Assembly (NCBI GenBank): GCA_963790475.1
Contig: CAWBOS010000013.1
Coordinates: forward strand, 256,001-320,000
Length of the DNA stretch: 64,000 nucleotides
Direction: 5' to 3'
From: an uncultured delta proteobacterium
GTDB taxonomy: Bacteria > Desulfobacterota > RBG-13-43-22
How positions within the stretch are numbered: the first letter of the stretch is position 1; every line of letters begins with the position of its first letter. Position numbers and translations under genes: made by a program. Shown in pieces: positions 769-58,828 of the stretch. The notes under the pieces are model-generated. The model ran no database searches. It saw only the letters and a program-made list of their open reading frames with translations, and was not told the DNA's origin.

Positions 769-3700
769 ATGAAATGCTTTAAGTGCGGTTTTGAGAACAG
801 GAACGGGGCAAAGTTCTGTGGAAAGTGCAGATCAAAGCTCACACAGTTCTGTCCCTCATGTAACGCAGAAAATCCACCGGAGACCATCTACTGCGATCAA
901 TGCGGCCAGGCCCTGGGAGAAGCCCTTCGCACCTCTCCAACGCCGACCGCTTTTGATAAGGCCCAACCCCAATCCTACACCCCAAAACATTTAGCCGAGA
1001 GGATCCTGAACATCCGCAGTGCCCTGGAAGGGGAGCGTAAGCTGGTCACGGTCATGTTTGCCGATGTGGTGGGCTTCACCAGTCTCTCGGAGAAGCTCGA
1101 ACCAGAAGAAGTGCACCTGATTATGGAAGGCTGCATCAAGATCCTGATGGATGAGATCCATAAGTATGAGGGGACGATCAACCAGTTCACCGGGGATGGG
1201 GTTATGACCCTGTTCGGTGCCCCCCTGGCCCATGAGGACCATGCCCAGCGCGCCTGTTATACGGCCCTGGCCATCCAGAAGGACCTGGCCGAATACAACG
1301 AGAAGATCCAGAAGGATTACGGCCAGGAATTCCGGATGCGTATCGGCCTCAACTCCGGTCCCGTGGTCGTCGGTTCCATCGGGGACGATCTGCACATGGA
1401 TTATACGGCCATCGGAGATACCATCAACCTGGCCTCCCGTATGGAAGGCCTGGCCCAACCCGGGACCGTTCTTCTCTCCAGGCACACCCACCGCCTGGTC
1501 AAGGACTACTTCGATCTGAAACCAATGGGTCCCTTGGAAGTGAAAGGTAAGGAAGAGCCCCAAGAGGCCTTTGAGCTGGTCAAGGTCGGGGGAGCGGCTA
1601 CCAGGCTGGAAGCGTCTATGGCCAGGGGGCTTACCCGGTTTGTGGGCCGACGACGGGAGATCGAAACCCTCCGGGAGGCTTTTATTAAGGTCCAATCAGG
1701 AGAGGGCCAAGTCATGGGCCTGGTCGGCGGAGCCGGGGTGGGAAAATCCAGGCTGATCCTCGAGATGAGGAAGATGTTTCCTCAAGAAGGATATCTTCAT
1801 CTCCAAGGAAGGTGCCTTCACTATGGAAGCTCCATCGCCTTCTCGCCCCTGTTGGACATCCTGAGGTCTTACTTTGAGATCAAAGAGAGCGATCCGGAGT
1901 ATTTAATCAAGCGAAGGATGAGAGAGAAAATCCTTGCCCTTGATGAAAAGCTAAACAATATCCTCCCACCTTTCCAGGAACTTTTATCCCTTATTGGGGA
2001 AGAGGATGCCTATCTGAAGCTTGAGCCCAGGCAGAAAAGAGAAAGGATCTTCGAGTCCCTAAAGGATCTTTTTGTTCGGGAGAGCCAGAACCAGCCCGTG
2101 ATCCTGGTTATAGAGGATCTGCACTGGATCGACAAGACCTCGGAAGAGTTTCTGGATTATTTGATCGGCTGGCTGGCCAATACCTCCATTTTTTTGATCC
2201 TTCTTTACCGGCCCGAGTACATCCACCGCTGGGCCAGTAAATCCTATTACAATAACCTCGGCCTGGATCAATTGTCCGTCAAGGCCAGCGCCGAGTTGGT
2301 TCAGTCCATCCTGGGGGAAGGAGAAATCGTCCCCGAGCTGAAAGACCTGATCCTGGGGAAAGCCGAGGGTAACCCTCTTTTTATGGAGGAGCTGACCCTT
2401 AGCCTGCTGGAGAACGGTTCTATCCTGAAAACCGGAGATCAATATGTTCTGAGCAAAAAGGCTTCAGACATTCAAGTCCCTGATACCATCCAGGGGATCA
2501 TCGCGGCCCGGATAGATCGTTTGGAGGAGAGTCTGAAGAGAATCATACAGGTAGCCTCGGTCATCGGGAGAGAATTTCCGTTCCGTATCCTTCAGGCCAT
2601 TGTGGAGATGAAAGAAGAGTTGAAATTCCACCTCATCAATCTTCAAAGCCACGAGTTCATCTACGAGAAGAGACTTCTCCCGGAACTGGAGTACATCTTC
2701 AAGCATGCCCTGACCCGGGAAGTGGCCTATAACAGCCTGCTTTTAAAAAGGAGAAAAGAGATCCACGAGAAGACCGGCAAGGCCATAGAAGGGCTCTATC
2801 AGGAAAGGCTGGAGGAGTTTTATGAGGTGCTGGCCTATCATTATTCCCGGAGCGATAGCCTGGACAAGGCCTGCCAGTATTTGAAATTATCCAGGAAGAA
2901 GTCCACCCAGAACAATTCTGTTTGGGAGGCCTATCGTTTTTACCAGGAAACACTTAGCCTCCTCAAGCAGATGCCGGAAACGGAGGAAAACAATAGGGAG
3001 CAGGTCGAGGTCATTCTATTAATGGCGGTTCCGATGAGAATGCTGGCTTATCCGGGAGATTCCTTCAAGTTCCTTCAAGAGGGGGAGAGGCTGGTCAAAG
3101 AGCTTAAGGATGGAAAAAGCAGGACATACTTAAAAAACTTCATAGGCCTATATTATTCCCAAAGAGGGGATCCCCTGCTGGGAAGAAAATATCTGGAGGA
3201 TTCTTTTGCCGAGGCCGAAAAGATACAGGATATTGAGATAATCGCCCCGGCCAGCATTGGCCTTTGTGTTTCTTATACAGTTGAAGGAGAGTATAAAAAA
3301 ATAGTACTTATAGCTCCCAAGGCCATCGCCCTGCTGGAGAAAACGCACCGGGAGTCTGAATTTTTTGGGTCAACTGGCAATCCATATTCGCAATTGCAAG
3401 GCTGGTATGGGCGTAGCTTGGCAGCTTTGGGAGAATTCAGGACCGGAGAGCAGTTATTGGAAAAGGCCCTTTCTTCTGCGCAGAAGAGCAATCATCTCTT
3501 TAGCATTGGCGGGGTAGAATTGCAGTATGGGATTCTATTTATGTTTAAAGGGGATGGAGAAAATATCATAAAACATTGTCAGAGTGCCATTGAATATTTT
3601 GAAAAATCGCAAGCGGTTGTCCTTTTACCAAGTGTCTGGAGTTTCATCGGTTTTGGATATTATTTTTTGGGCGAGCTTACAAGCGCTTTAGCGTTCATGG

Positions 3701-4146
3701 AAAAAGGCCTTAAGATGCAACAGGATATCGGATTACCCCTCTATTTGTCCTTGATTCATTCCTGCTTAAGTATGTTTCATGGTGATTCAGGCCATTGGGA
3801 AGAAGCCAAGGTCCAGGCAGAGCAGGCGCTGAAGTTCGCCCAAACAAATTTTGAAAAATTTTTTGAAGGGTTATCATGGCTTCTTCTGGGAAGGACCGTT
3901 GGAAAAATGGAAAAAGCACAACTCGATATAGCAGAGGAGTATATCCTAAAAGGAATGAAGATATTGGAGGAACTGGGGATCAAACCAATTCTTTCCATAG
4001 GCAATTTTTACTTCGGGGAGCTTTATGCCGATGCGGTTCAGAAAGAAAAAGCCCTGGAACACCTAATGAATGCCGAAGCCTTGTTTCAGGAGATGGGAAT
4101 GGATTATTGGCTGGGGAGGACCCGGGAGATGTTGGGGAAGCTCTGA
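769..4146 (+). CDS. Double zinc ribbon + class III nucleotide cyclase + AAA_16/STAND ATPase + TPR protein
   Basis: Four CxxC pairs; FADVVGFT, FTGDG, GDTINLASRME; Walker A GGAGVGKS; Walker B VIEDLHWID; GNPLF; TPRs; GGAGG RBS. Confidence 0.92.
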   Translation: MKCFKCGFENRNGAKFCGKCRSKLTQFCPSCNAENPPETIYCDQCGQALGEALRTSPTPTAFDKAQPQSYTPKHLAERILNIRSALEGERKLVTVMFADVVGFTSLSEKLEPEEVHLIMEGCIKILMDEIHKYEGTINQFTGDGVMTLFGAPLAHEDHAQRACYTALAIQKDLAEYNEKIQKDYGQEFRMRIGLNSGPVVVGSIGDDLHMDYTAIGDTINLASRMEGLAQPGTVLLSRHTHRLVKDYFDLKPMGPLEVKGKEEPQEAFELVKVGGAATRLEASMARGLTRFVGRRREIETLREAFIKVQSGEGQVMGLVGGAGVGKSRLILEMRKMFPQEGYLHLQGRCLHYGSSIAFSPLLDILRSYFEIKESDPEYLIKRRMREKILALDEKLNNILPPFQELLSLIGEEDAYLKLEPRQKRERIFESLKDLFVRESQNQPVILVIEDLHWIDKTSEEFLDYLIGWLANTSIFLILLYRPEYIHRWASKSYYNNLGLDQLSVKASAELVQSILGEGEIVPELKDLILGKAEGNPLFMEELTLSLLENGSILKTGDQYVLSKKASDIQVPDTIQGIIAARIDRLEESLKRIIQVASVIGREFPFRILQAIVEMKEELKFHLINLQSHEFIYEKRLLPELEYIFKHALTREVAYNSLLLKRRKEIHEKTGKAIEGLYQERLEEFYEVLAYHYSRSDSLDKACQYLKLSRKKSTQNNSVWEAYRFYQETLSLLKQMPETEENNREQVEVILLMAVPMRMLAYPGDSFKFLQEGERLVKELKDGKSRTYLKNFIGLYYSQRGDPLLGRKYLEDSFAEAEKIQDIEIIAPASIGLCVSYTVEGEYKKIVLIAPKAIALLEKTHRESEFFGSTGNPYSQLQGWYGRSLAALGEFRTGEQLLEKALSSAQKSNHLFSIGGVELQYGILFMFKGDGENIIKHCQSAIEYFEKSQAVVLLPSVWSFIGFGYYFLGELTSALAFMEKGLKMQQDIGLPLYLSLIHSCLSMFHGDSGHWEEAKVQAEQALKFAQTNFEKFFEGLSWLLLGRTVGKMEKAQLDIAEEYILKGMKILEELGIKPILSIGNFYFGELYADAVQKEKALEHLMNAEALFQEMGMDYWLGRTREMLGKL

Positions 4147-4270
4147 TGAGAAGAGAACCAATGTCCGGATTAGAAACGGCCCATTTTTTTTGCACAGTTC
4201 AAATAGTAAGTGTTAATTTTTCGGAGTGGCAAGATAAAGCATTGTAGGTGTAAGCGATTGAAGAGTTATC

Positions 4271-4298
4271 TTGACACTGTCCGTCAACCCCAAATACT
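4271..4298 (+). promoter_or_regulatory. Putative sigma70 promoter upstream of leader copy 1
   Basis: TTGACA-N16-AATACT. Confidence 0.45.
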
Positions 4299-4323
4299 GG
4301 TCAGAACAAAAAATTTTAGTAAA

Positions 4324-4425
4324 CATCCCAACCGAACCCCAACCTTTTTGGAGCGGGAAATGAAGTGGGAGTTTCAGAAAGTACCAATATGACGCCTCCA
4401 TGAAGGGTCATCCCTTTGTGGAGGC
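4324..4425 (+). ncRNA. Repeated leader element copy 1 (candidate riboswitch/attenuator; uORF MKWEFQKVPI 4360-4392)
   Basis: CATCCCAAC...GGAG...ATGAAGTGGGAGTTTCAGAAAGTACCAATATGA followed by GCCTCCA/TGGAGGC hairpin; weak T tail in this copy. Confidence 0.6.
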
Positions 4426-4537
4426 TCTCCGGTTGGTTCGGTGGAAACCAATGGTTCAAATAGCATAAGGATGAAAACAAACCGACATTCATATTACCTA
4501 TCCCCCTAAGAGTGGTGGAATTGAAAAGGAGGTAAAA

Positions 4538-4828
4538 ATGGGAAGATATTTACTAATATGGGAAGCCGATGAGAGCAAAATTCCTATTAATCCTGAAGAG
4601 CGCAAGGTTGGATGGTTGGCTGCGATTGAAATGACAAAGCAGGATATTAAGACTGGGTTGACCAAGGATTGGGGATCATTTCTTGGACAAACCAAGGGAT
4701 TTAGTATCACTGAAGGGACTGAGGACGATGTTATTAGGGAAACCCTGAAGTATATCCCCTACTTTCGATTCAAATTATACCCTTTAGTATCCATTGAAAA
4801 ATTAGAAGCAGCCATAAAAGCTATATAA
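4538..4828 (+). CDS. Small alpha+beta barrel protein (DUF3303/muconolactone isomerase-like)
   Basis: AGGAGG RBS; 96 aa; clear paralog of 5919..6212 (YLLxWEAD, PxER, KDWGxF, EGTE, YIPxxxF). Confidence 0.7.
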   Translation: MGRYLLIWEADESKIPINPEERKVGWLAAIEMTKQDIKTGLTKDWGSFLGQTKGFSITEGTEDDVIRETLKYIPYFRFKLYPLVSIEKLEAAIKAI

Positions 4829-4889
4829 TTGGTTGAATGAAACTATGAACCTTAGGCAGGGTCAAAAGGCCCTGCCTGTAATCCTTGTG

Positions 4890-4970
4890 AAATGGGCTAT
4901 GAAGTGGGAGTTTCGGAAGGTTCCATTGTGAAGCATCTTTGGGGAATCAAACCCTGTAGAGGCTTTTTTG
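4890..4970 (+). ncRNA. Repeated leader element copy 2 (uORF MKWEFRKVPL 4899-4931, terminator 4931-4970)
   Basis: ATGAAGTGGGAGTTTCGGAAGGTTCCATTGTGA, then AAGCATCT...AGAGGCTTTTTT. Confidence 0.55.
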
Positions 4971-4998
4971 CTTTAACCATTTAAGAAAGGAATGAGAC

Positions 4999-5286
4999 AT
5001 GAGTGCATATGTAATCTTCGATGTGGAAATCCGCGACCTTGCACGTTATCAGGAGTATATGAAAGCTGTGAAGCCCGCCGTCGAAGCAGCTGGAGGAAAG
5101 TATCTTTCACGAGGAGGAGCACATAAGGTTTACGAAGGGGACTGGCAGCCAAGGCGAGTTGTGCTTCTTGAGTTTCCGTCCATGGCAGCAATTGAAGATT
5201 TCTATAATGGATCCATATACCGCGAACTCAAAAGCATGAGAGACGAGTGCAGTTCTGCTCGGGCCGTAAGTGTTGAAGGCATTTAG
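4999..5286 (+). CDS. DUF1330 domain protein (dimeric alpha+beta barrel)
   Basis: MSAYVIFDVEI, GGKYLSRGG, EGDWQPRRVVLLEFPS motifs. Confidence 0.9.
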   Translation: MSAYVIFDVEIRDLARYQEYMKAVKPAVEAAGGKYLSRGGAHKVYEGDWQPRRVVLLEFPSMAAIEDFYNGSIYRELKSMRDECSSARAVSVEGI

Positions 5287-5319
5287 TCAAAATATCACGC
5301 CAATGGCAACAGTGATGCC

Positions 5320-5420
5320 TAACTCAAACCTATTTGAAGAGGGAATGAAGTGGAATTTTCAGAAAGTACCAATACGAAGCCTCCATGAAGGGTTATCCCT
5401 TTGTGGAGGCTTATTTTTTT
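5320..5420 (+). ncRNA. Repeated leader element copy 3 (terminator 5377-5420)
   Basis: ATGAAGTGGAATTTTCAGAAAGTACCAATACG then AAGCCTCCATGAAGGG...CCCTTTGTGGAGGCTTATTTTTTT. Confidence 0.6.
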
Positions 5421-5488
5421 AATAACTAATTCTTCTTAATCCCATTTTACATTCAAATTTTTCCATTTAAATGAAAGGAGACAAAACA

Positions 5489-5809
5489 ATGCCTTAACTG
5501 ATAACAACCTTTTTATATCCAACCGATATAGTGCCTAAGGTGAGGGAGAGATATCAAGAAGCGTCAACAAAATATCCTCCTGATGAGAAATTGTATACCA
5601 CGCTTGTTCCAGTCGCTGCAAAAGCAACTCATGAAGGCATGCAGACAATAAATATTGTAGAAGTCAAGAAAGGAAAACTGGATGAAGCCTATCTTTATTT
5701 AGGAAAGATCATGAATATGTTCCAAAGTATCCAGGGTATTGAATACAGACTAGACATTTATGCTACGCTGGAAGATGGGACTAGTATGGTCCCAACTGGG
5801 CAATACTAA
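5489..5809 (+). pseudogene. Small barrel-like hypothetical protein with TAA at codon 3 (ORF track starts it at GTG 5531)
   Basis: AAGGAG RBS, then ATG CCT TAA CTG ATA ACA ACC... in frame with 5531..5809. Confidence 0.6.
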
Positions 5810-5918
5810 AATAGAAGACAAGGGGAAAACGCATAATTGTTTTGTATATATGTAATCGTCATCCGGGCTGTGACATTTACCTATAATTATAGATGACCTT
5901 TAAAAGGAGAGAAAAATC

Positions 5919-6212
5919 ATGGGAAAATATTTACTTTGGGAAGCTGACTGGACGAAAGTAGCTGTGGATCCGAAAGAGCGAGGAACTGGATGGAGTGTTG
6001 CGCAGGAAATGGTTTTGCAAAACCTTAAAAAAGGTATAATGAAAGATTGGGGATGCTTCGTATCGGAAGTTAACGGGTATGCCGTCGCTGAAGGAACTGA
6101 GGTTGAAGTTACGAACATGGTACTACAGTATATTCCTTTCTACAAGTTCACGGCAAAACCAATCGCTTCAATCAGTCAAGTAATGGAATCAACAAAAGCC
6201 ATGATGAAGTGA
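5919..6212 (+). CDS. Small alpha+beta barrel protein, paralog of 4538..4828
   Basis: AGGAG RBS; aligns end to end with 4538..4828. Confidence 0.72.
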   Translation: MGKYLLWEADWTKVAVDPKERGTGWSVAQEMVLQNLKKGIMKDWGCFVSEVNGYAVAEGTEVEVTNMVLQYIPFYKFTAKPIASISQVMESTKAMMK

Positions 6213-6282
6213 ATGTGCAGTTTCACCGATTGAGCGAGTGATTTTTTTCTGTCCGGATAATAGTAAGCAAACTCTTTTAAGG

Positions 6283-6314
6283 AAGGCAGAGTCATCCTGG
6301 CTCTGCCTTTTTTT
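6283..6314 (+). terminator. Intrinsic terminator
   Basis: AAGGCAGAG...CTCTGCCTT followed by T-run. Confidence 0.8.
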
Positions 6315-6523
6315 GCATATTTGAAATGGTAATCCTTAATTTTTAGTCCAGCTCCCAAGCAAGAGTTGTAGGTGTAATGGGTTAATTGGGGGGAGAACGC
6401 AATTTCTCGAGTGATTTAAAGTAGTTCTTCCTGAAATCCTCAAACTAACAATGTGAAAAAAACGCAAGAGTTTAAACCGTAATCAACCTCACTATTCGAT
6501 TAGCCTTCCTTTTTCTCTTAATG

Positions 6524-7830
6524 TTATCGGTTTGGTTTTTGTTGAAAACTTAGATCCGCTCCATAGGATGTTCCTGCACTGTTGGTGGCCACAAGGCGGT
6601 AATGATAAACGGTATAAAATCTCAGTCCGGTTATTCTGGCCGTAGCAGCAACATAACCTGTCCCGCTTCCGGCTGAATTAACCGTCGTGGCAGACCCGTA
6701 GGAAGTGGTCCGCCCCCACTGAAAGATATAGGTCGTTGATAAGCCGTTGGGATTAACCGTTCCATTCAAAGTGGCGGAATTAAAAATCACAGACGAGGCC
6801 GCGCCGGTATTGGCCACCGGTGCCTTGGTAACCGCAGAGAAAGTTGCTGTCACATTGAGATTCGAGTTCATGGTTACCCGGCAGGTGGACAATGTTCCAG
6901 AACAGGCACCTGACCATCCTCCGAAAACAGAGGTGGCATCAGGAATAGCTGTTAAGGTGACTCCCGTACCAGAAGCGAAAGTGGTCCCTACCGGATTAGT
7001 GGAGACATTGCCATTACCTGTCCCATTTTTGCTAACAGTGAGGGTATAAGTTGCTGAGGAAATAAGCGAAAAAAAGCTGCTATGGTGTGATTGGCGCTTA
7101 CGGAAGAAAAGGTGTAGGAAGTAATCGATCCTTTTGAGACACCGTCCACATTCACATTGGCAACCTTGTAACCGGAATTGGGGGTAATAGTGAATGTCTG
7201 TCCGCCCCCTGCCGGAACAGAAACCTGTCCGGAAGGGGAAATAGTCCCGCCAGATCCGGCCGAAGAAGTGATAATGTAAGCGGCCGAACCGTTTTCACTC
7301 ACCGTAAACACATTCCCGGCGACAGTCAGACTGTCTGAGCGGGTAATGCCGGTGTTGGGAGAAACCGTATACCTCATTGTTCCACTTCCAATACCGGACC
7401 CCGAATTAATCGTTATCCAGGAGGCAGAAGCCGAAGTCCCCCAATTACAACCAGCCTGAGTAGTGATGGACACACTTCCCGACCCACCGGAGGAGGGAAA
7501 AGAGGCACTTGAAGGGGATATGGCGTAGGTGCAGGAAGGGACCGTATAAATTACCTCATTGGAGAACCCGCTCTCTAACCCCTGGCTATTATAAGCAGTA
7601 GCCGCAATATAGTAAGTCAGTCCCAAAGTCAGGCCATTTAAAATGTAGGTGGTTACGTTACCCACATCTATTCTATTCTGGTAGTTTCCTGATTGCGTCC
7701 CGGAATAGATCTTATAACCGGCCAAGTCCGATTCGCTGTTGGGATCCCAAGTAAGTGAGACCTGAGCACAATGACCTGGCGGGCCAAGATTAGAAAAAAG
7801 TACTTCTATTTGTAAAGTACGGCCCGGCAT
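6524..7830 (-). pseudogene. Surface/secreted protein with FN3, BACON-like and InlB B-repeat-like domains; +1 frameshift at A7 run 7049-7055; N-terminus replaced by a repeat
   Basis: WDPNSESDLAGYKIY (FN3), CTYAISP...CNW (BACON), TITPNSGYKVANVNVDG; removing one base joins 6988..7830 to 6524..6892 through GGWSGACSG. Confidence 0.75.
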
Positions 7831-7911
7831 AATCCCGTTTTCTTCAGAAGACCCCCTCCACCCCCCTGCCTTCTTTTTTTTCTTGAGCTTGCCTTTCCCT
7901 TGTTATAGACT
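7802..7911 (+). repeat. ~90 bp promoter-bearing repeat, copy A
   Basis: Near-identical to 9778-9872; ends in TTGAGC(7883)-N17-TAGACT(7906). Confidence 0.85.
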
Positions 7912-7982
7912 GATTCTATTAAAAGCAATCTCTTATCAAAAATTCATCAGGAGGCATAACAATAAAAAAAGGAGGAAAAAAT

Positions 7983-9698
7983 ATGAGCCCAAAGACCTTT
8001 TATCCCGAGTACAGTAAAAATTACCCTCTTCTGATCACGAACTTTATGAAAAGACCGCTAAGCATGTATCCGGATGATATCGCTACCGTCTATCGGAACG
8101 ATGATGGCAAGTATTTCCGGTTCACCTGGAGGGAATGGTACGCGCGCACCTGCCAGCATGCCCACCTCCTCAAGGCCTTAGGGGTTAAAGAGGGTGACCG
8201 GGTCGGCGCCATGGCGCTGAATCACCACCGCCATCTGGAGAACATTTTTGCCACCGTTGGCATAGGGGCGATTTCCCACCCCATCAATATCAGACTTTCA
8301 TTGGATCATATTGGCTACGTCATCACTCATGCCGAGGATTATGTCATCTTTTTTGATGAGATCCTCCTGCCTTTGGTCGAACTCCTTTACGACCGAATCA
8401 AGCCGGCCGTGAAAAAATTTGTCTATATGTCCGATAAACCGGGCCTGCCCAAGACCAAGATCGAGCCTCTGGTCGAATTCGAGGCCTTATTGAAGGAACA
8501 GCCGACCACCTTCGATTGGCCGGAATTGAGTGAAGACACGCATGCTGCACTTTATTACACCACCGGCACGACCGGTCTGCCTAAAGGGGCGCTGTACACC
8601 CATCGCCAGATTTATCTGCAATGTATTCATTCACTAGAAAGGGTGGGCAATTCGGTAACGCTGCCTGACGACCCGCCGCGACCTAATCAAACAAATTTTT
8701 TCGCAGTTATCCCCTTTTTCCATATCCATGCCTGGGGAACGCCCTTCATGATGGTTCATTCGGCGGCCAAGATGGTTTTTTCGAGCAAATATACCCCGGA
8801 TAGTTTCTGCGAGCTCATTCAGAATGAAAAAGTAAATGCCGCTGTGATGGTGCCGACCATGCTGGCCATGCTTTTGGAATACCCGGATCTCGATAAGTGG
8901 GATCTTACCAGTCTGGCCAGCATAACCATCGGAGGAGGCGCCTTACCACTTGGTTTAAAGAACAAAGCCGAAAAGCTTTTCCCCCATATGAGGGCCTCAT
9001 CCGGCTACGGTATGTCGGAAACGATGGCCGGTGTTATCACCGCCGTATTAAAAAGAGACATGGAGACTTGGCCGAAAGAGGAGATTGACAAGGTCCTGGT
9101 CAAGACCGGATTGCCGATGCTTCCTGCGATAGACGCCCGTGTCGTTGATGAGAACGGCAAGGATGTGCCTCACGATAACGAAACGATCGGCGAGATCATC
9201 CTGCGGGGCCATTGGATAACGGAACAGTACTTCAAAGATCCGGAGAAGACGGCCGTTGCCTGGCGGGGCGGTTGGTTCCACACCGGCGATGCGGCCAAAA
9301 TTGATCGGGACGGCTATATTATCATCGCGGATCGAATAACCGATGTCATCAGAAGCGGCTCCGAAATGGTACCCACGGTTCTTCTAGAGAATTTGACAAG
9401 CAATGCCGATTTCGTCTTGGAGGCCACCTATGTCGGTATCCCTGATGAAAAGTGGGGAGAAATACCGATGGCCCTGGTAAAGACAACGACCGGATCGAAC
9501 AAGAAAGAGGAGGATATCCTCAGTTTCCTCCAGGAAGAGGGCGTTGACAAAGGAAAGATTACCAAATGGATGCTTCCTGTATATGTCGCCTTTGTCGACG
9601 ATATCCCCAAGACAAGCGTTGGCAAATACGACAAGATAGCCGTCAGGAAGCAAATAGAGGAGTTTAAAGCCAAAGCCAAAAAGGTGCGTTCGGTATAA
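7983..9698 (+). CDS. Long/medium-chain fatty acid-CoA ligase (AlkK-like)
   Basis: YTTGTTGLPKG, GYGMSET, WFHTGD, PKTSVGK motifs; AGGAGG RBS. Confidence 0.92.
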   Translation: MSPKTFYPEYSKNYPLLITNFMKRPLSMYPDDIATVYRNDDGKYFRFTWREWYARTCQHAHLLKALGVKEGDRVGAMALNHHRHLENIFATVGIGAISHPINIRLSLDHIGYVITHAEDYVIFFDEILLPLVELLYDRIKPAVKKFVYMSDKPGLPKTKIEPLVEFEALLKEQPTTFDWPELSEDTHAALYYTTGTTGLPKGALYTHRQIYLQCIHSLERVGNSVTLPDDPPRPNQTNFFAVIPFFHIHAWGTPFMMVHSAAKMVFSSKYTPDSFCELIQNEKVNAAVMVPTMLAMLLEYPDLDKWDLTSLASITIGGGALPLGLKNKAEKLFPHMRASSGYGMSETMAGVITAVLKRDMETWPKEEIDKVLVKTGLPMLPAIDARVVDENGKDVPHDNETIGEIILRGHWITEQYFKDPEKTAVAWRGGWFHTGDAAKIDRDGYIIIADRITDVIRSGSEMVPTVLLENLTSNADFVLEATYVGIPDEKWGEIPMALVKTTTGSNKKEEDILSFLQEEGVDKGKITKWMLPVYVAFVDDIPKTSVGKYDKIAVRKQIEEFKAKAKKVRSV

Positions 9699-9740
9699 AA
9701 CGCATCTTCCGACATTCACATTATTTAACTTGATAAGCTC

Positions 9741-9774
9741 AAAGCCGCCATATTAACCTATGGCGGCTTTTTTA
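9741..9774 (+). terminator. Intrinsic terminator
   Basis: AAAGCCGCCATA...TATGGCGGCTTTTTT. Confidence 0.85.
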
Positions 9775-9777
9775 TTG

Positions 9778-9892
9778 ACTTCTATTTGTAAAGTAAGGCC
9801 CGGCATAATCCCGTTTTCTTCAGAAGACCCCCTCCACCCCCCCTGCCTTCCTTTTTTTTCTTCTTGAGCTTGTACCAACCTTTCCTTATACT
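9778..9892 (+). repeat. ~90 bp promoter-bearing repeat, copy B
   Basis: Near-identical to copy A; ends in TTGAGC(9864)-N17-TATACT(9887). Confidence 0.85.
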
Positions 9893-9998
9893 CTTTCCAC
9901 CAAAACAATTTGTTTCAAATATTAAACCTGTTTGTTTCGCGGCAATAGACTCACGACTTATTAACCAATAATTTAAATGATAAAGCGAGGGATTGGAA

Positions 9999-10508
9999 AT
10001 GGCGAGAATAGCTTATGTGGAGAAAGAACAGGCGACTGAGAAAACCCGAGATATCCTGAATAAGAACAACTGGAGCAATATCTTTCGTATGCTCGGGCAT
10101 TCGGAATCACACCTTTATAACTATTGCCGGCTGGGTAATGCCATTCGTTTCAAGGGCGAGCTTGATCCGGGTTTGCGGGAAATCGCCATTACCCGGACCG
10201 GCATACTTTGTCATTCAGATTACGAAGTCATAGCCCACAAGCGTCTGTGTGCTGCCGCCGGGGTCTCACAAGAAAAAATCGACGCCCTGGAAAAAGGGGC
10301 TGAGGCGGATGTGTTTACCGATGCCGAAAAGGATGTCCTTCGTTTTACCGACGATGTGGTTAAAAACGACCGGGCTGGCGATGAAACCTTCAATGCCGTG
10401 GCGAATCGCCTGACCCCCGGGGCACTGGTCGAACTCCACCTGGCCATCGGATTCTACATCATGACTTCGAAATTCCTGTTGACCTTTGATGTTGATTTGC
10501 AGTCCTGA
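9999..10508 (+). CDS. Carboxymuconolactone decarboxylase / AhpD-like protein
   Basis: MARIAYV, NIFRMLGH, LREIAITRTGILCHSDYEVIAH. Confidence 0.85.
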   Translation: MARIAYVEKEQATEKTRDILNKNNWSNIFRMLGHSESHLYNYCRLGNAIRFKGELDPGLREIAITRTGILCHSDYEVIAHKRLCAAAGVSQEKIDALEKGAEADVFTDAEKDVLRFTDDVVKNDRAGDETFNAVANRLTPGALVELHLAIGFYIMTSKFLLTFDVDLQS

Positions 10509-10657
10509 GACCACCCCCTCTTCGTAGGGGAGAGGGAGTATCTCCGGACGAACTTTACCTGGTCATTGAAGAACCGTTATATTCCACCCTTTTAATTATA
10601 TTGACAATTTTCTTCAAAAATGCGACAGACTTATTCCTATACTAAATTATTGAATAA

Positions 10658-10772
10658 CATCCCAACTTAACCCCAACCTGCCTGGAGTGGGTAATGAAGT
10701 GGGAAGTTTCAGAAAATTCCAATATAAAGCCTCCCATGGGTCTTTCAGTTCCATAGGAGGCTTCTTTTTTTA
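10658..10772 (+). ncRNA. Repeated leader element copy 4 (terminator 10727-10772)
   Basis: CATCCCAACTTAACCCCAACC...GGAGTGGGTAATGAAGTGGGAAGTTTCAGAAAATTCCAATAT then AAGCCTCC...GGAGGCTTCTTTTTTT; TTGACA at 10601. Confidence 0.62.
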
Positions 10773-10803
10773 CCAACATTTCATTTCTAAGGAGGTATCA
10801 AAA

Positions 10804-11109
10804 ATGATCAAAGTCAGCGTGTTGTATCCGAATGAAGAGGGCAAGAAATTTGACATGATCTATTACTGCAATAAACACATTCCCATGTGCCAGGAAAAGT
10901 TAGGGTGTATTCAAGTGGCTGTAGAACAGGGATTGGCCGGTGCGGCCCCGGGAACCCCAGCTCCTTATATCGCCATGGGCCATCTGTATTTCGATTCCCT
11001 GGAGGCGTTGCAGGTCGCCTTTGAACATCACGCCGCAGAGATCATGGCCGATATTCCCAACTACACTGAAATCGCCCCTGTGATGCAGATCAGCGAGGTA
11101 AAAATGTAG
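10804..11109 (+). CDS. EthD family protein (dimeric alpha+beta barrel)
   Basis: MIKVSVLYP, FDMIYYCNKHIP, IMADIPNYT; AAGGAGG RBS before ATG 10804. Confidence 0.92.
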   Translation: MIKVSVLYPNEEGKKFDMIYYCNKHIPMCQEKLGCIQVAVEQGLAGAAPGTPAPYIAMGHLYFDSLEALQVAFEHHAAEIMADIPNYTEIAPVMQISEVKM

Positions 11110-11306
11110 CTATACCGGATACTGGATAATCCGAATGTCCTGGTTTTGCTTCAAACGGGGACGTCAGAGGCGGGGCCATCCTGGCCCTGCCTCTTTCCCA
11201 CATTTCAATCCGTAATGCTTAACATTTCTTCAAACTCCATAGGCTTGACTCGTAGGTGCAAGTTCCCAAGCAGGAAGAGTCTGCTTCTTTCTTTCCTCTT
11301 ACCCCA

Positions 11307-49940: not shown

Positions 49941-50466
49941 TTCCCGTATCATTACCCCAAGTGGGATCATACAAATTCCGGACCCGGATTTGTCTTTGGG
50001 GCAGGTCAACCGAAATCACGAAGTCCTCGACGGCCGGAAGCATTAATTCCTTTTTGTCGTCCCGAATGACCCAGATGTCATGAGCCGGGGTTGAAAATAT
50101 CTCCTCCAGGAGACCTAAAAATCGGCCCTGATCGGTATAAACTCGGCTTCCTATCAGTTGGTACCAGTAATATTCTCCCTCTGGAAGGGCTTGGAGATCC
50201 TTCTCGTCAATGTATAAAGAATAGCCACTTATTGCCTCAGCCTGCTCACGAGTATCCAGCCCTTGAAAATGAAGGAGCAATGAACGGGCCTGAATTTTCA
50301 CTTCCGAGATCAACAGGGCTTTCATTTCTTGGTCTTGATTCAAATAGATTTTACGCCCGACAAAGAAACTCTCATAAGAAGAGGCGTAAGAATAAACCTT
50401 CACCTGGCCGCGCAGCCCATGAGGTTTGGCCACCTTGCCGATCAACAGAAAGTCCGATTTCATCAA
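49930..50466 (-). CDS. rimM: Ribosome maturation factor
   Basis: IGKVAKPHGLRG, EYYWYQLIG; synteny. Confidence 0.95.
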   Translation of the reverse strand: MMKSDFLLIGKVAKPHGLRGQVKVYSYASSYESFFVGRKIYLNQDQEMKALLISEVKIQARSLLLHFQGLDTREQAEAISGYSLYIDEKDLQALPEGEYYWYQLIGSRVYTDQGRFLGLLEEIFSTPAHDIWVIRDDKKELMLPAVEDFVISVDLPQRQIRVRNLYDPTWGNDTGNDS

Positions 50467-58753: not shown

Positions 58754-58828
58754 TGGGGTGTCGGCAAGCGGTAAGCCACGGGTCTTTGGAACCCGCATTC
58801 GGAGGTTCGAATCCTCCCACCCCAGCCA
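58754..58828 (+). tRNA. tRNA-Gln(TTG)
   Basis: Acceptor TGGGGTG/CACCCCA, anticodon loop CTTTGGA, GGTTCGAATCC, encoded CCA; ispE-tRNA-prs synteny. Confidence 0.97.

Follow-up and report, generated by a model that had tools for sequence, protein, structure and literature searches.

A dispersed leader element with a conserved ten-codon reading frame abutting an intrinsic terminator, a candidate ribosome-mediated attenuator of uncultured Desulfobacterota

A repeated 5' leader element was analyzed in a 64,000-nucleotide stretch (the window) of contig CAWBOS010000013.1 (positions 256,001 to 320,000, forward strand) from the assembly of an uncultured delta proteobacterium (GCA_963790475.1; Desulfobacterota, RBG-13-43-22). 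All evidence was computational and came from metagenome-assembled genomes (MAGs) of uncultured organisms. The element consists of a Shine-Dalgarno (SD) sequence, a conserved 10-codon upstream open reading frame (uORF) and an intrinsic terminator, and it is read here, with about even confidence, as a ribosome-mediated leader-peptide transcription attenuator, possibly one with a nascent-peptide stall. This reading starts from the observed anatomy of the copies, their conservation, the coding-type substitution in the uORF, covariation in the terminator and co-orientation of the genes downstream. A preliminary description had presented the element as a four-segment RNA in which segment 2 pairs either with segment 1 or with segment 3, and segments 3 and 4 form a terminator, as in a riboswitch or attenuator. 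Transcription attenuation was the right category, since the element recurs as a 5' leader on the sense strand and closes with an intrinsic terminator. Judged by its sequence, however, what had been called segment 2 is an SD, a 6-nt spacer and the 10-codon uORF, which that description had missed. In frame it reads ATG AAG TGG GAG TTT CAG AAA GTA CCA ATA TGA, giving MKWEFQKVPI*, with GGAG and the 6-nt spacer on its 5' side.

Four copies, all on the + strand, were confirmed in the window at 4324-4425, 4890-4970, 5320-5420 and 10658-10772, with a mean column identity of 67% across the four. The 16-nt core pattern ATGAAGTGGRANTTTC (at most 2 mismatches) gave 5 matches in the window against a shuffle expectation of 0.53, and 0 of 100 shuffles reached 5; four of the matches were the copies, and the fifth, at 50448 on the minus strand, was unrelated. 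TTGACA begins 53 nt (4271) and 57 nt (10601) 5' of the two full copies, and a hairpin with a GC-rich stem and a T-run was present in three copies (4932-4969, 5377-5420 and 10727-10771), both as first described. The extra A (GGGAAG) and the extra bulged C (CCTCCC) of copy 4 were also both found, and the distance from element to next open reading frame (ORF), given earlier as 30-110 nt, measured 29-113 nt. The parts of the four copies and the ORFs that follow them are listed below.

4271-4298, + strand: sigma-70-like promoter of copy 1 (TTGACA, 16 nt, AATACT; 10 of 12 consensus matches)
4322-4359, + strand: 5' module of copy 1, with C-rich strands CATCCCAAC (4324-4332) and CCCCAACC (4337-4344) and the SD GGAG (4350-4353)
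4360-4392, + strand: uORF of copy 1, ATG to TGA, MKWEFQKVPI*, with coding-type substitutions family-wide
4394-4425, + strand: hairpin of copy 1, GCCTCC...GGAGGC, abutting the uORF stop, without a T-run
4538-4828, + strand: ORF downstream of copy 1, 96 aa, no Pfam match, a 44% identical paralogue of the ORF at 5919-6212 (97 aa)
4899-4931, + strand: uORF of copy 2 (operon-internal), MKWEFRKVPL*, recognized from the sequence
4932-4969, + strand: terminator hairpin and T-run of copy 2, with the DUF1330 start codon 29 nt further on
4999-5286, + strand: DUF1330 gene (Pfam PF07045, E 7e-29)
5345-5422, + strand: uORF of copy 3 (operon-internal), CGA in place of the stop, ORF crossing the terminator (MKWNFQKVPIRSLHEGLSLCGGLFF*)
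5377-5420, + strand: intrinsic terminator of copy 3, 16-bp stem and T-run, from the terminator scan; fold z -3.68
5531-5809, + strand: ORF downstream of copy 3, 92 aa, no Pfam match
10601-10606, + strand: TTGACA -35 hexamer of copy 4, with a spacer, ATTTTCTTCAAAAATGC, like the conserved promoter spacer of other copies
10656-10693, + strand: 5' module of copy 4 (AACATCCCAACTTAACCCCAACC), SD GGAG at 10684-10687
10694-10756, + strand: uORF of copy 4, with a +1 frameshift after codon 4 (MKWEVSENSNIKPPMGLSVP*), still entering the terminator
10727-10771, + strand: intrinsic terminator and T-run of copy 4, with the EthD start about 32 nt further on
10804-11109, + strand: EthD-domain gene (Pfam PF07110, E 1.5e-8)

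The ORFs downstream of copies 1-4 encode 96, 95, 92 and 101 aa. Pfam recognized only DUF1330 and EthD among them, in agreement with the labels given earlier, whereas the label 'DUF3303-like' could not be upheld, the ORFs at 4538-4828, 5531-5809 and 5919-6212 having no Pfam match even at E<=5. Copy 1 (4383-4437) was atypical in that its flanks at 4383-4388 (ACCAAU) and 4432-4437 (GGUUGG) lengthen the stem over the last uORF codons. An 8-nt part of its 5' module, ACCGAACC (4331-4338), was complementary to GGTTCGGT immediately 3' of the hairpin. From its sequence, the switch in copy 1 may act on translation instead of transcription.

The count of four held for the window and was an undercount for the genome. 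A hidden Markov model was built from the four window copies, and nhmmer (E<1e-4) found 14 copies in the 6.34-Mb genome, spread over 4 contigs. A covariance model (R1) built from these 14 was searched against relatives in the phylum, as had been proposed, and the downstream genes were tabulated; the element was recovered in two orders. It was present in 16 of 20 other genomes of the same family (17 of 21 with its own), which is the sole family of its order and class among the genomes compared. As many as 16 of 17 genomes in a second order carried it too, and the highest counts in single genomes were 40 and 36 matches. Two further families had whole-model matches (G033, E 1.5e-11; G054, E 5e-6), G046 had a weak match (E 2.7e-4), and in G036 and G039 the model matched at its terminator end only. 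When 185,579 species genomes were scanned for the exact pattern, 20 loci were obtained, almost all of them in MAGs titled 'uncultured delta proteobacterium'. One strong copy (L109, 97 bits) lay on a 3-kb contig of a MAG titled as Spirochaetota, with bit score and G+C equal to those of a copy in G008 (L033), and this contig is probably mis-binned. An exact-pattern match in a Verrucomicrobiae-titled MAG (L100) was not recovered by the covariance model at E<=1e-6. Alignments were made of 88 distinct copies of the element's own lineage (A4, first lineage) and of 46-47 copies of the second order (A5, second lineage).

A conserved short reading frame led by an SD was apparent within the leader in both lineages. 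The start at the conserved position was ATG in 80 of 87 first-lineage rows, with 1 GTG and 1 TTG, and in all 46 of 46 second-lineage rows. An SD core stood 3-11 nt 5' of the start in 46 of 87 and 33 of 46 rows, respectively, and its spacing was exactly 6 nt in 31 and 28, with a variable spacer sequence. The peptide consensus was MKWxFQKVPI, and M-[KR]-[WR]-x-[FY]-[QR]-K-[VM]-P-[IL] described both lineages; the same peptide was encoded by different nucleotides across them (for example AGA AGG AGT TAC CGG AAG GTG CCG ATA). The fraction of synonymous plus conservative changes was 0.513 in the uORF frame of the first lineage (72 of 88 rows, indel-free) and 0.291 and 0.346 in the other frames; the column-permutation null was 0.341 +/- 0.055, and 1 of 1000 permutations reached the observed value. 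For the second lineage the fraction was 0.546 vs. 0.331 and 0.354 (8 of 1000 permutations), and internal stops were found in 0 of 32 rows in the uORF frame, as opposed to 12 of 32 and 1 of 32 in the others. Several indels kept the frame: a -3-nt and a +6-nt indel in the first lineage, and in the second lineage a +3-nt, 11-codon variant in eight copies (MRRWGYQKMVM*), with frame and stop position both retained. The stop was mostly UGA (24 of 31 in the first lineage, 26 of 30 in the second). Codon 10 was nearly always ATA, with variation at the neighboring wobble positions, and codons 8 and 9 were often GTA and CCA; ATA (13.5%), GTA (11.2%) and CCA (9.0%) are the rarest synonymous codons of the genome.

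The uORF and the terminator were found in a close geometry, the last base of the uORF stop adjoining the first pair of the terminator stem. Among 82 uORFs with a canonical start, the stop fell at the stem base in 30, inside the hairpin in 7, beyond it in 38 and early in 7, and hence 75 of 82 reach the stem base or further. In the second lineage, 30 of 46 uORFs are 10 or 11 codons long and stop at the stem base, and in about half of the first-lineage copies there is no stop there and the ORF passes through the terminator. The leader ORF thus overlaps or abuts its terminator in the manner of pyrBI and bmrB, as far as sequence can indicate, and from this geometry a translating ribosome must sit on, or pass through, the terminator 5' arm in almost every copy.

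The description of segments 3:4 as an intrinsic terminator was borne out by the alignments, with 89.8% of cells paired and 11 of 14 pairs changing on both sides. The second-lineage terminator was 93.0% paired vs. 82.6% in shuffles (0 of 500 as high), and its base showed a CG to GC swap (28 vs. 12). The RNAalifold consensus contained the terminator only. Hairpins with a GCCUCC/GGAGGC stem and a T-run were, in the element's own genome, almost exclusive to these elements.

Under ribosome-mediated attenuation, a ribosome that has reached the final uORF codons or the stop would cover the terminator 5' arm, the hairpin would not form and the polymerase would read into the gene; with the ribosome absent or late, the terminator would form and transcription would stop. 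In the first lineage, the 5' C-rich strands can pair with the SD region and codons 2-4, which would gate or time initiation at the uORF. Either the conserved peptide (F/Y-Q/R-K-V-P-I beside the mostly UGA stop) or the rare codons would set the dwell time of the ribosome; since the peptide is conserved, the nascent chain may set dwell at the uORF end. A bolder form of this proposal, possible though doubtful at present, is a 'nascent-peptide riboswitch regulon': the MKWxFQKVPI peptide and its 11-residue sister class MRRWGYQKMVM would be arrest peptides that stall the ribosome at their last codons or UGA stop on a cellular signal and so mask the terminator, reused before 14-40 unrelated operons per genome and set in tandem in the second order as two-input pairs. 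Tandem units before one gene were found in that order, each made up of an 11-codon-class unit, a conserved spacer of 100-144 nt and a 10-codon-class unit:

L138, 12-410: tandem unit
L138, 1229-1627: tandem unit
L131, 1501-1853: tandem unit
L143, 1275-1630: tandem unit

The tandem spacer carries a hairpin of its own (CTCCCG...CGGGAG) and no TTGACA.

The pairings outside the terminator bear on an RNA-only riboswitch or attenuator, in which 1:2, 2:3 and 3:4 would be anti-antiterminator, antiterminator and terminator, a ligand or factor would shift the balance, and the ATG and the frame would be incidental. The consensus strands are complementary, with 73.8% of 2:3 cells paired in the first lineage vs. 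35-58% when the partner was slid, but the shuffle mean was 73.7% and 219 of 500 shuffles were as high, so that the 2:3 antiterminator of the preliminary description did not stand. The second lineage came out slightly better (69.0% vs. a shuffle mean of 67.4%; 5 of 500 as high). Covariation was absent from 2:3 in both, at 0.113 vs. 0.106 shuffled in the first lineage (75 of 500 as high) and 0.109 vs. 0.108 in the second (229 of 500), and segment 2 had no change to match the second-lineage CG to GC swap at the base of the terminator. Segment 2 instead varies at codon third positions and between E/D and F/Y/I, breaking 2:3 pairs. The extra A and C of copy 4 had been read as compensatory, and because 2:3 does not covary this does not generalize.

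The 1:2 pairing fared better in one lineage than in the other: it was thermodynamically plausible and weakly covarying in the first, and had no consensus in the second. In the minimum free energy fold of copy 1, the partners of the C-rich strands are the SD region and codons 2-4 of the uORF; covariation is weak. Over 40 full first-lineage copies, the hairpin of 1:2 plus CCCCAACC:SD had a mean z of -1.8, and the GGG of codons 3-4 was paired with a probability of 0.89. Over 50 full copies, the 1:2 plus C2:SD hairpin was paired at 0.818 vs. 0.794 (0 of 1000 shuffles as high), with covariation of 0.192 vs. 0.163 (2 of 1000), slightly above shuffles. This speaks for the RNA-only explanation, as do the high conservation of G2 and the terminator 5' arm, which would fit strands with two partners each, and the nucleotide sequence that frame-broken copies retain. 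An alternative outer register of the 1:2 helix (columns 5-7 with 64-66) was not above shuffles, and the register given earlier (CCCAACUU with AAGUGGG) was somewhat better. In the second lineage alifold found no consensus 5' structure (mean z -0.5), and about one third of the first-lineage copies lie <=70 nt after a same-strand ORF and have no 5' module, segment 1 included. The universal module is therefore SD, uORF and terminator, and the 5' hairpin is, on these alignments, a lineage-specific addition that would occlude uORF initiation.

An aptamer was sought in vain. The element had been described as belonging to no recognized class, and an Rfam scan of the window agreed, matching only a tRNA at 58754-58825; a permissive scan of 4100-11200 gave sub-threshold chance matches only, 12 related and 8 second-lineage loci gave no Rfam match, and L138 at E<=1 gave two chance matches to microRNAs. 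There was no structured, aptamer-like domain and no covarying ligand-binding fold, and with 2:3 lacking covariation the riboswitch logic was not sustained; the RNA-only explanation is considered improbable. Small hairpins within the uORF (UUUC/GAAA, UACC/GGUA) were inspected by eye and dropped, their variation being non-compensatory.

Antitermination by a trans-acting protein or small RNA (sRNA) that reads the conserved single strand beside the terminator is judged quite unlikely. Such a factor might be a CsrA-like protein binding GGA, a single-strand binder of the cold-shock or C-rich type, or an antiterminator of the RAT/ANTAR type. A conserved, largely unpaired stretch of about 45 nt abuts and overlaps the terminator 5' arm and holds three GGA-containing motifs and two CCCAAC-like repeats; the terminator stem is over-conserved and nearly exclusive to the elements in the genome, and the promoter and upstream region common to copies suggest a shared regulon. 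Substitutions nevertheless track the reading frame, in-frame indels occur, and the SD spacer is fixed in length and variable in sequence, which marks an SD and start rather than a binding site. Nor does any covarying hairpin extend over the terminator arm: neither alifold nor pair counts supported a RAT/ANTAR-type hairpin there. No candidate factor was identified, no binding protein having been sought.

The sense-strand leader arrangement proposed for the window held across the family. The longest downstream ORF was co-oriented in 74 of 84 assessable first-lineage copies, not at random, and in 33 of 43 second-lineage copies. Upstream neighbors were co-oriented in 59 cases, divergent in 20 and absent in 9, and the 20 copies with a divergent neighbor had the conserved promoter at a fixed distance. 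Full copies in general carried a conserved sigma-70-like promoter at a fixed distance (ATTGACAtttttCCtaAnAATGCTAT in the first lineage; CTTGAC, 17 nt, GAGTATTTT in the second), homologous in other full copies to that of copy 1, and copies that stand alone also have a 5' stretch rich in C and A. Many Pfam-supported genes start 29-65 nt past the element (in the window, DUF1330 at 29 nt and EthD at 32 nt), gaps that leave no room for a promoter, and those genes must therefore be transcribed by read-through.

The proposed regulon of dimeric alpha+beta barrel proteins was not borne out, the downstream Pfam families being very diverse. They included seven class-III cyclase proteins (often with AAA_16 and TPR) and five AhpC/TSA-like proteins. 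Other genes encoded tautomerase, cupin, DJ-1/PfpI, nitroreductase, DUF1330, DUF3303, EthD, GYD, NIPSNAP and DUF3237 proteins; esterase, beta-lactamase-fold, CoA-transferase, acyl-CoA synthetase, GroES and sigma-54 activator proteins; and solute-binding proteins, MFS, amidase and peptidases.

These same units might not be conditional switches at all. Multi-copy or dual-function sRNA genes (promoter, RNA of about 140 nt, terminator), or a promoter-terminator cassette that has spread, would leave the downstream genes to be expressed otherwise or by leaky read-through; this is held to be unlikely. Full units do have a strong conserved promoter and a strong terminator, occur at 14-40 copies per genome and are patchily present within one genus; in many copies homology reaches at least 200 nt upstream of the promoter, which is unexplained. 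Tandem units have no gene between them, and 10 of the 84 assessable copies lack a co-oriented downstream ORF. The C-rich 5' motifs also recall the anti-SD seeds of known sRNAs. Set against this are the strong co-orientation (74 same vs. 8 opposite strand), the short distance to the following start codon, in which another promoter would not fit, and the roughly one third of copies that are operon-internal without promoter or 5' module. Copies before the same gene family were moreover inherited with their subtype features across genomes (AhpC/TSA-type, cspA-type), and no terminal inverted repeats or target duplications were noticed on reading the copies, no dedicated search having been run. An integron attC array, a thought prompted by the cassette-like small genes between repeats, was considered unlikely: copies were dispersed, and inspection by eye showed neither complementary ends nor core sites.

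It is very improbable that the free 10-aa peptide acts in its own right, as a small protein or signal with many coding copies. Its sequence is conserved across two orders, but half of the first-lineage copies have no stop and would yield differing products of 25-40 aa, no export signal was present, frameshifted subfamilies persist, and the position of the peptide is fixed relative to the terminator.

Several observations weigh against ribosome-mediated attenuation or limit the strength of its evidence. Synonymous changes alone were not enriched in either lineage (145 of 1000 and 639 of 1000 permutations reached the observed value in the first, 428 of 1000 and 57 of 1000 in the second). It is conservative replacements that carry the coding signal, in rows that are related and not independent, and the signal is moderate evidence and no proof. 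In the first lineage, starts were non-canonical in five rows (ATA in 4, AAG in 1), and a codon-11 stop was present in only 30 of 70 rows, with R in 22. Frames were broken by a +1 shift in window copy 4 and L007 and by a -1 shift in a subfamily upstream of AhpC/TSA-like genes (L023, L084, L040), and four copies downstream of a cspA-like gene have no SD and a stop at uORF codon 6. Broken-frame copies still keep their nucleotide conservation, which is unexplained, as is the conservation of the GCCUCC/GGAGGC stem far beyond the need of a terminator. Nucleotides such as the third base of ATA are over-conserved for coding, so that RNA-level constraints coexist with it. On the gene side, 8 of the 84 assessable first-lineage copies had their longest downstream ORF on the opposite strand and 2 had none. 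Finally, four genomes of the same genus (G001, G002, G005, G007; 97-100% complete) had no element match, and the system is on that account dispensable or mobile; nine sister genomes had 1-11 copies.

The cspA-associated copies (G000:C10:1577063, L070, L038 and L074, from four genomes of the genus) have retained both nucleotide core and terminator. The CMD gene of G005 was 93% identical to that of the window, and homology stopped at the CMD stop codon, where synteny ends.

Leader ORFs that overlap or abut an intrinsic terminator occur in the E. coli pyrBI leader and the Tn916 tet(M) leader. In B. subtilis bmrB-bmrCD, attenuation is ribosome-mediated, the leader ORF contains the intrinsic terminator, and rare codons have an effect (PMC4191407). 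The element shares with these three an SD-led short ORF, a terminator at or inside the ORF end, rare codons near that end, and a proposed role for ribosome position in deciding whether the terminator forms. It differs from them in that one 10-aa peptide with its terminator recurs at 14-40 unrelated loci per genome, tandem pairs among them. Its ORF is also much shorter, the genes that follow include none for antibiotic resistance or the pyrimidine pathway, and alternative stem-loops have no covariation support.

With trpL, hisL, thrL, leuL and pheL the element has in common a leader peptide followed by a Rho-independent terminator in the 5' leader. Unlike those leaders it has neither a run of codons for a single amino acid nor a biosynthetic operon downstream, its 2:3 antiterminator is unsupported, and its stop codon is at the terminator base and not in region 1/2. 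A trpL-type sensor of amino-acid starvation was accordingly rejected, because no codon is repeated in the uORF; the heterogeneous downstream genes and the 2:3 strands without covariation were further grounds.

TnaC, SpeFL and MsrDL are regulatory arrest peptides that act at the stop codon. PepNL, of 14 aa, is a very short peptide that blocks release at UGA (PMC11890864). The present peptide resembles these four in being very short and conserved, with a mostly UGA stop, a conserved penultimate K-V-P-I and a position upstream of putatively regulated genes. No sequence likeness to them was established; the present family is multi-copy, many first-lineage copies have no stop, stalling is a prediction, and the predicted effect is on an intrinsic terminator instead of on Rho access or the unmasking of an SD.

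Riboswitches with terminator expression platforms are likewise multi-copy cis leaders with a terminator end before diverse genes, as in large riboswitch regulons, but here there is no covarying aptamer fold and no Rfam match, and the core behaves as an SD and a coding frame. Motifs of the uORF type have reportedly been taken at first for structured RNAs in the Corynebacterium ilvB-II uORF (PMC10272879) and the mycobacterial polycysteine short ORFs (bioRxiv 10.1101/834739). In both, as here, a conserved intergenic 'RNA motif' is reported to resolve into a regulatory short ORF; those ORFs are reported to be single-operon, amino-acid-specific sensors, whereas the present family is dispersed and has no cognate amino acid.

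Further repeats and genes were noted around the copies. Directly 5' of copy 1 lies a gene at 769-4146 (+ strand) for a protein of 1125 aa with a double zinc ribbon, class-III cyclase, AAA_16 and MalT-like TPR, and proteins of this architecture are encoded directly downstream of the element in other genomes (L053, L063, L067, L022). A strong stand-alone intrinsic terminator (12-bp stem, T-run) follows the AMP-binding gene at 9741-9770, and it is the cause of the sub-threshold Rfam matches to RefA9, Yfr10 and rliA. An 80-nt direct repeat, 90% identical, stands at 7802-7881 and 9778-9857 (+ strand; ACTTCTATTTGTAAAGTA...CCCCCTCCACCCCCC...TTTTTT), preceding the AMP-binding gene (7983-9698) and a CMD-family gene (9993-10508), and G005 retains it 5' of its CMD orthologue. 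Another repeat family, about 70 nt long and with palindromic sub-motifs, is represented at 6388-6485 (+ strand; GCTTCCTGAAGTCC...CCATTTTTGAAAAAAGACAAGAGTTCAAACGGTAATCG), with 14 nhmmer matches at E<1e-4 in its own genome, including G000:C12:1017939-1018143. In many other genomes it was found 60-230 nt upstream of the element promoter, and it was also found alone; judging from its sequence and placement, an operator or enhancer-like role is possible, as is a further repeat of some other kind.

A full-text literature search found the peptide string 'MKWEF' in no paper (supplements lay outside the search), and keyword searches on leader peptides, attenuation and arrest peptides gave analogues only. 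A leader peptide with a terminator is a known kind of device. To our knowledge, such attenuators have been known as one-off devices, each linked to one operon and one amino acid or drug. New here are three features: a single 10-aa peptide and a single terminator, both conserved, define a dispersed family; this family occupies 14-40 heterogeneous loci per genome across two orders; and units of its two classes stand in tandem. For RNA-motif discovery the element is a caution, in that an apparent terminator/antiterminator riboswitch can be an SD and a micro-ORF. At only about 115 nt it is open to direct cell-free testing despite its uncultured hosts.

For these organisms, the finding is that one uORF-terminator unit has been reused, like a riboswitch class, before dozens of unrelated genes in two uncultured orders of one phylum, among them genes for cyclase-STAND regulators, peroxiredoxin-like proteins, small alpha+beta barrels, hydrolases and transporters. 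Should uORF translation indeed control read-through, these genes would form a global regulon wired via the ribosome and not via a transcription factor or an RNA aptamer, and if the peptide does sense something, it would be the first dispersed arrest-peptide regulon.

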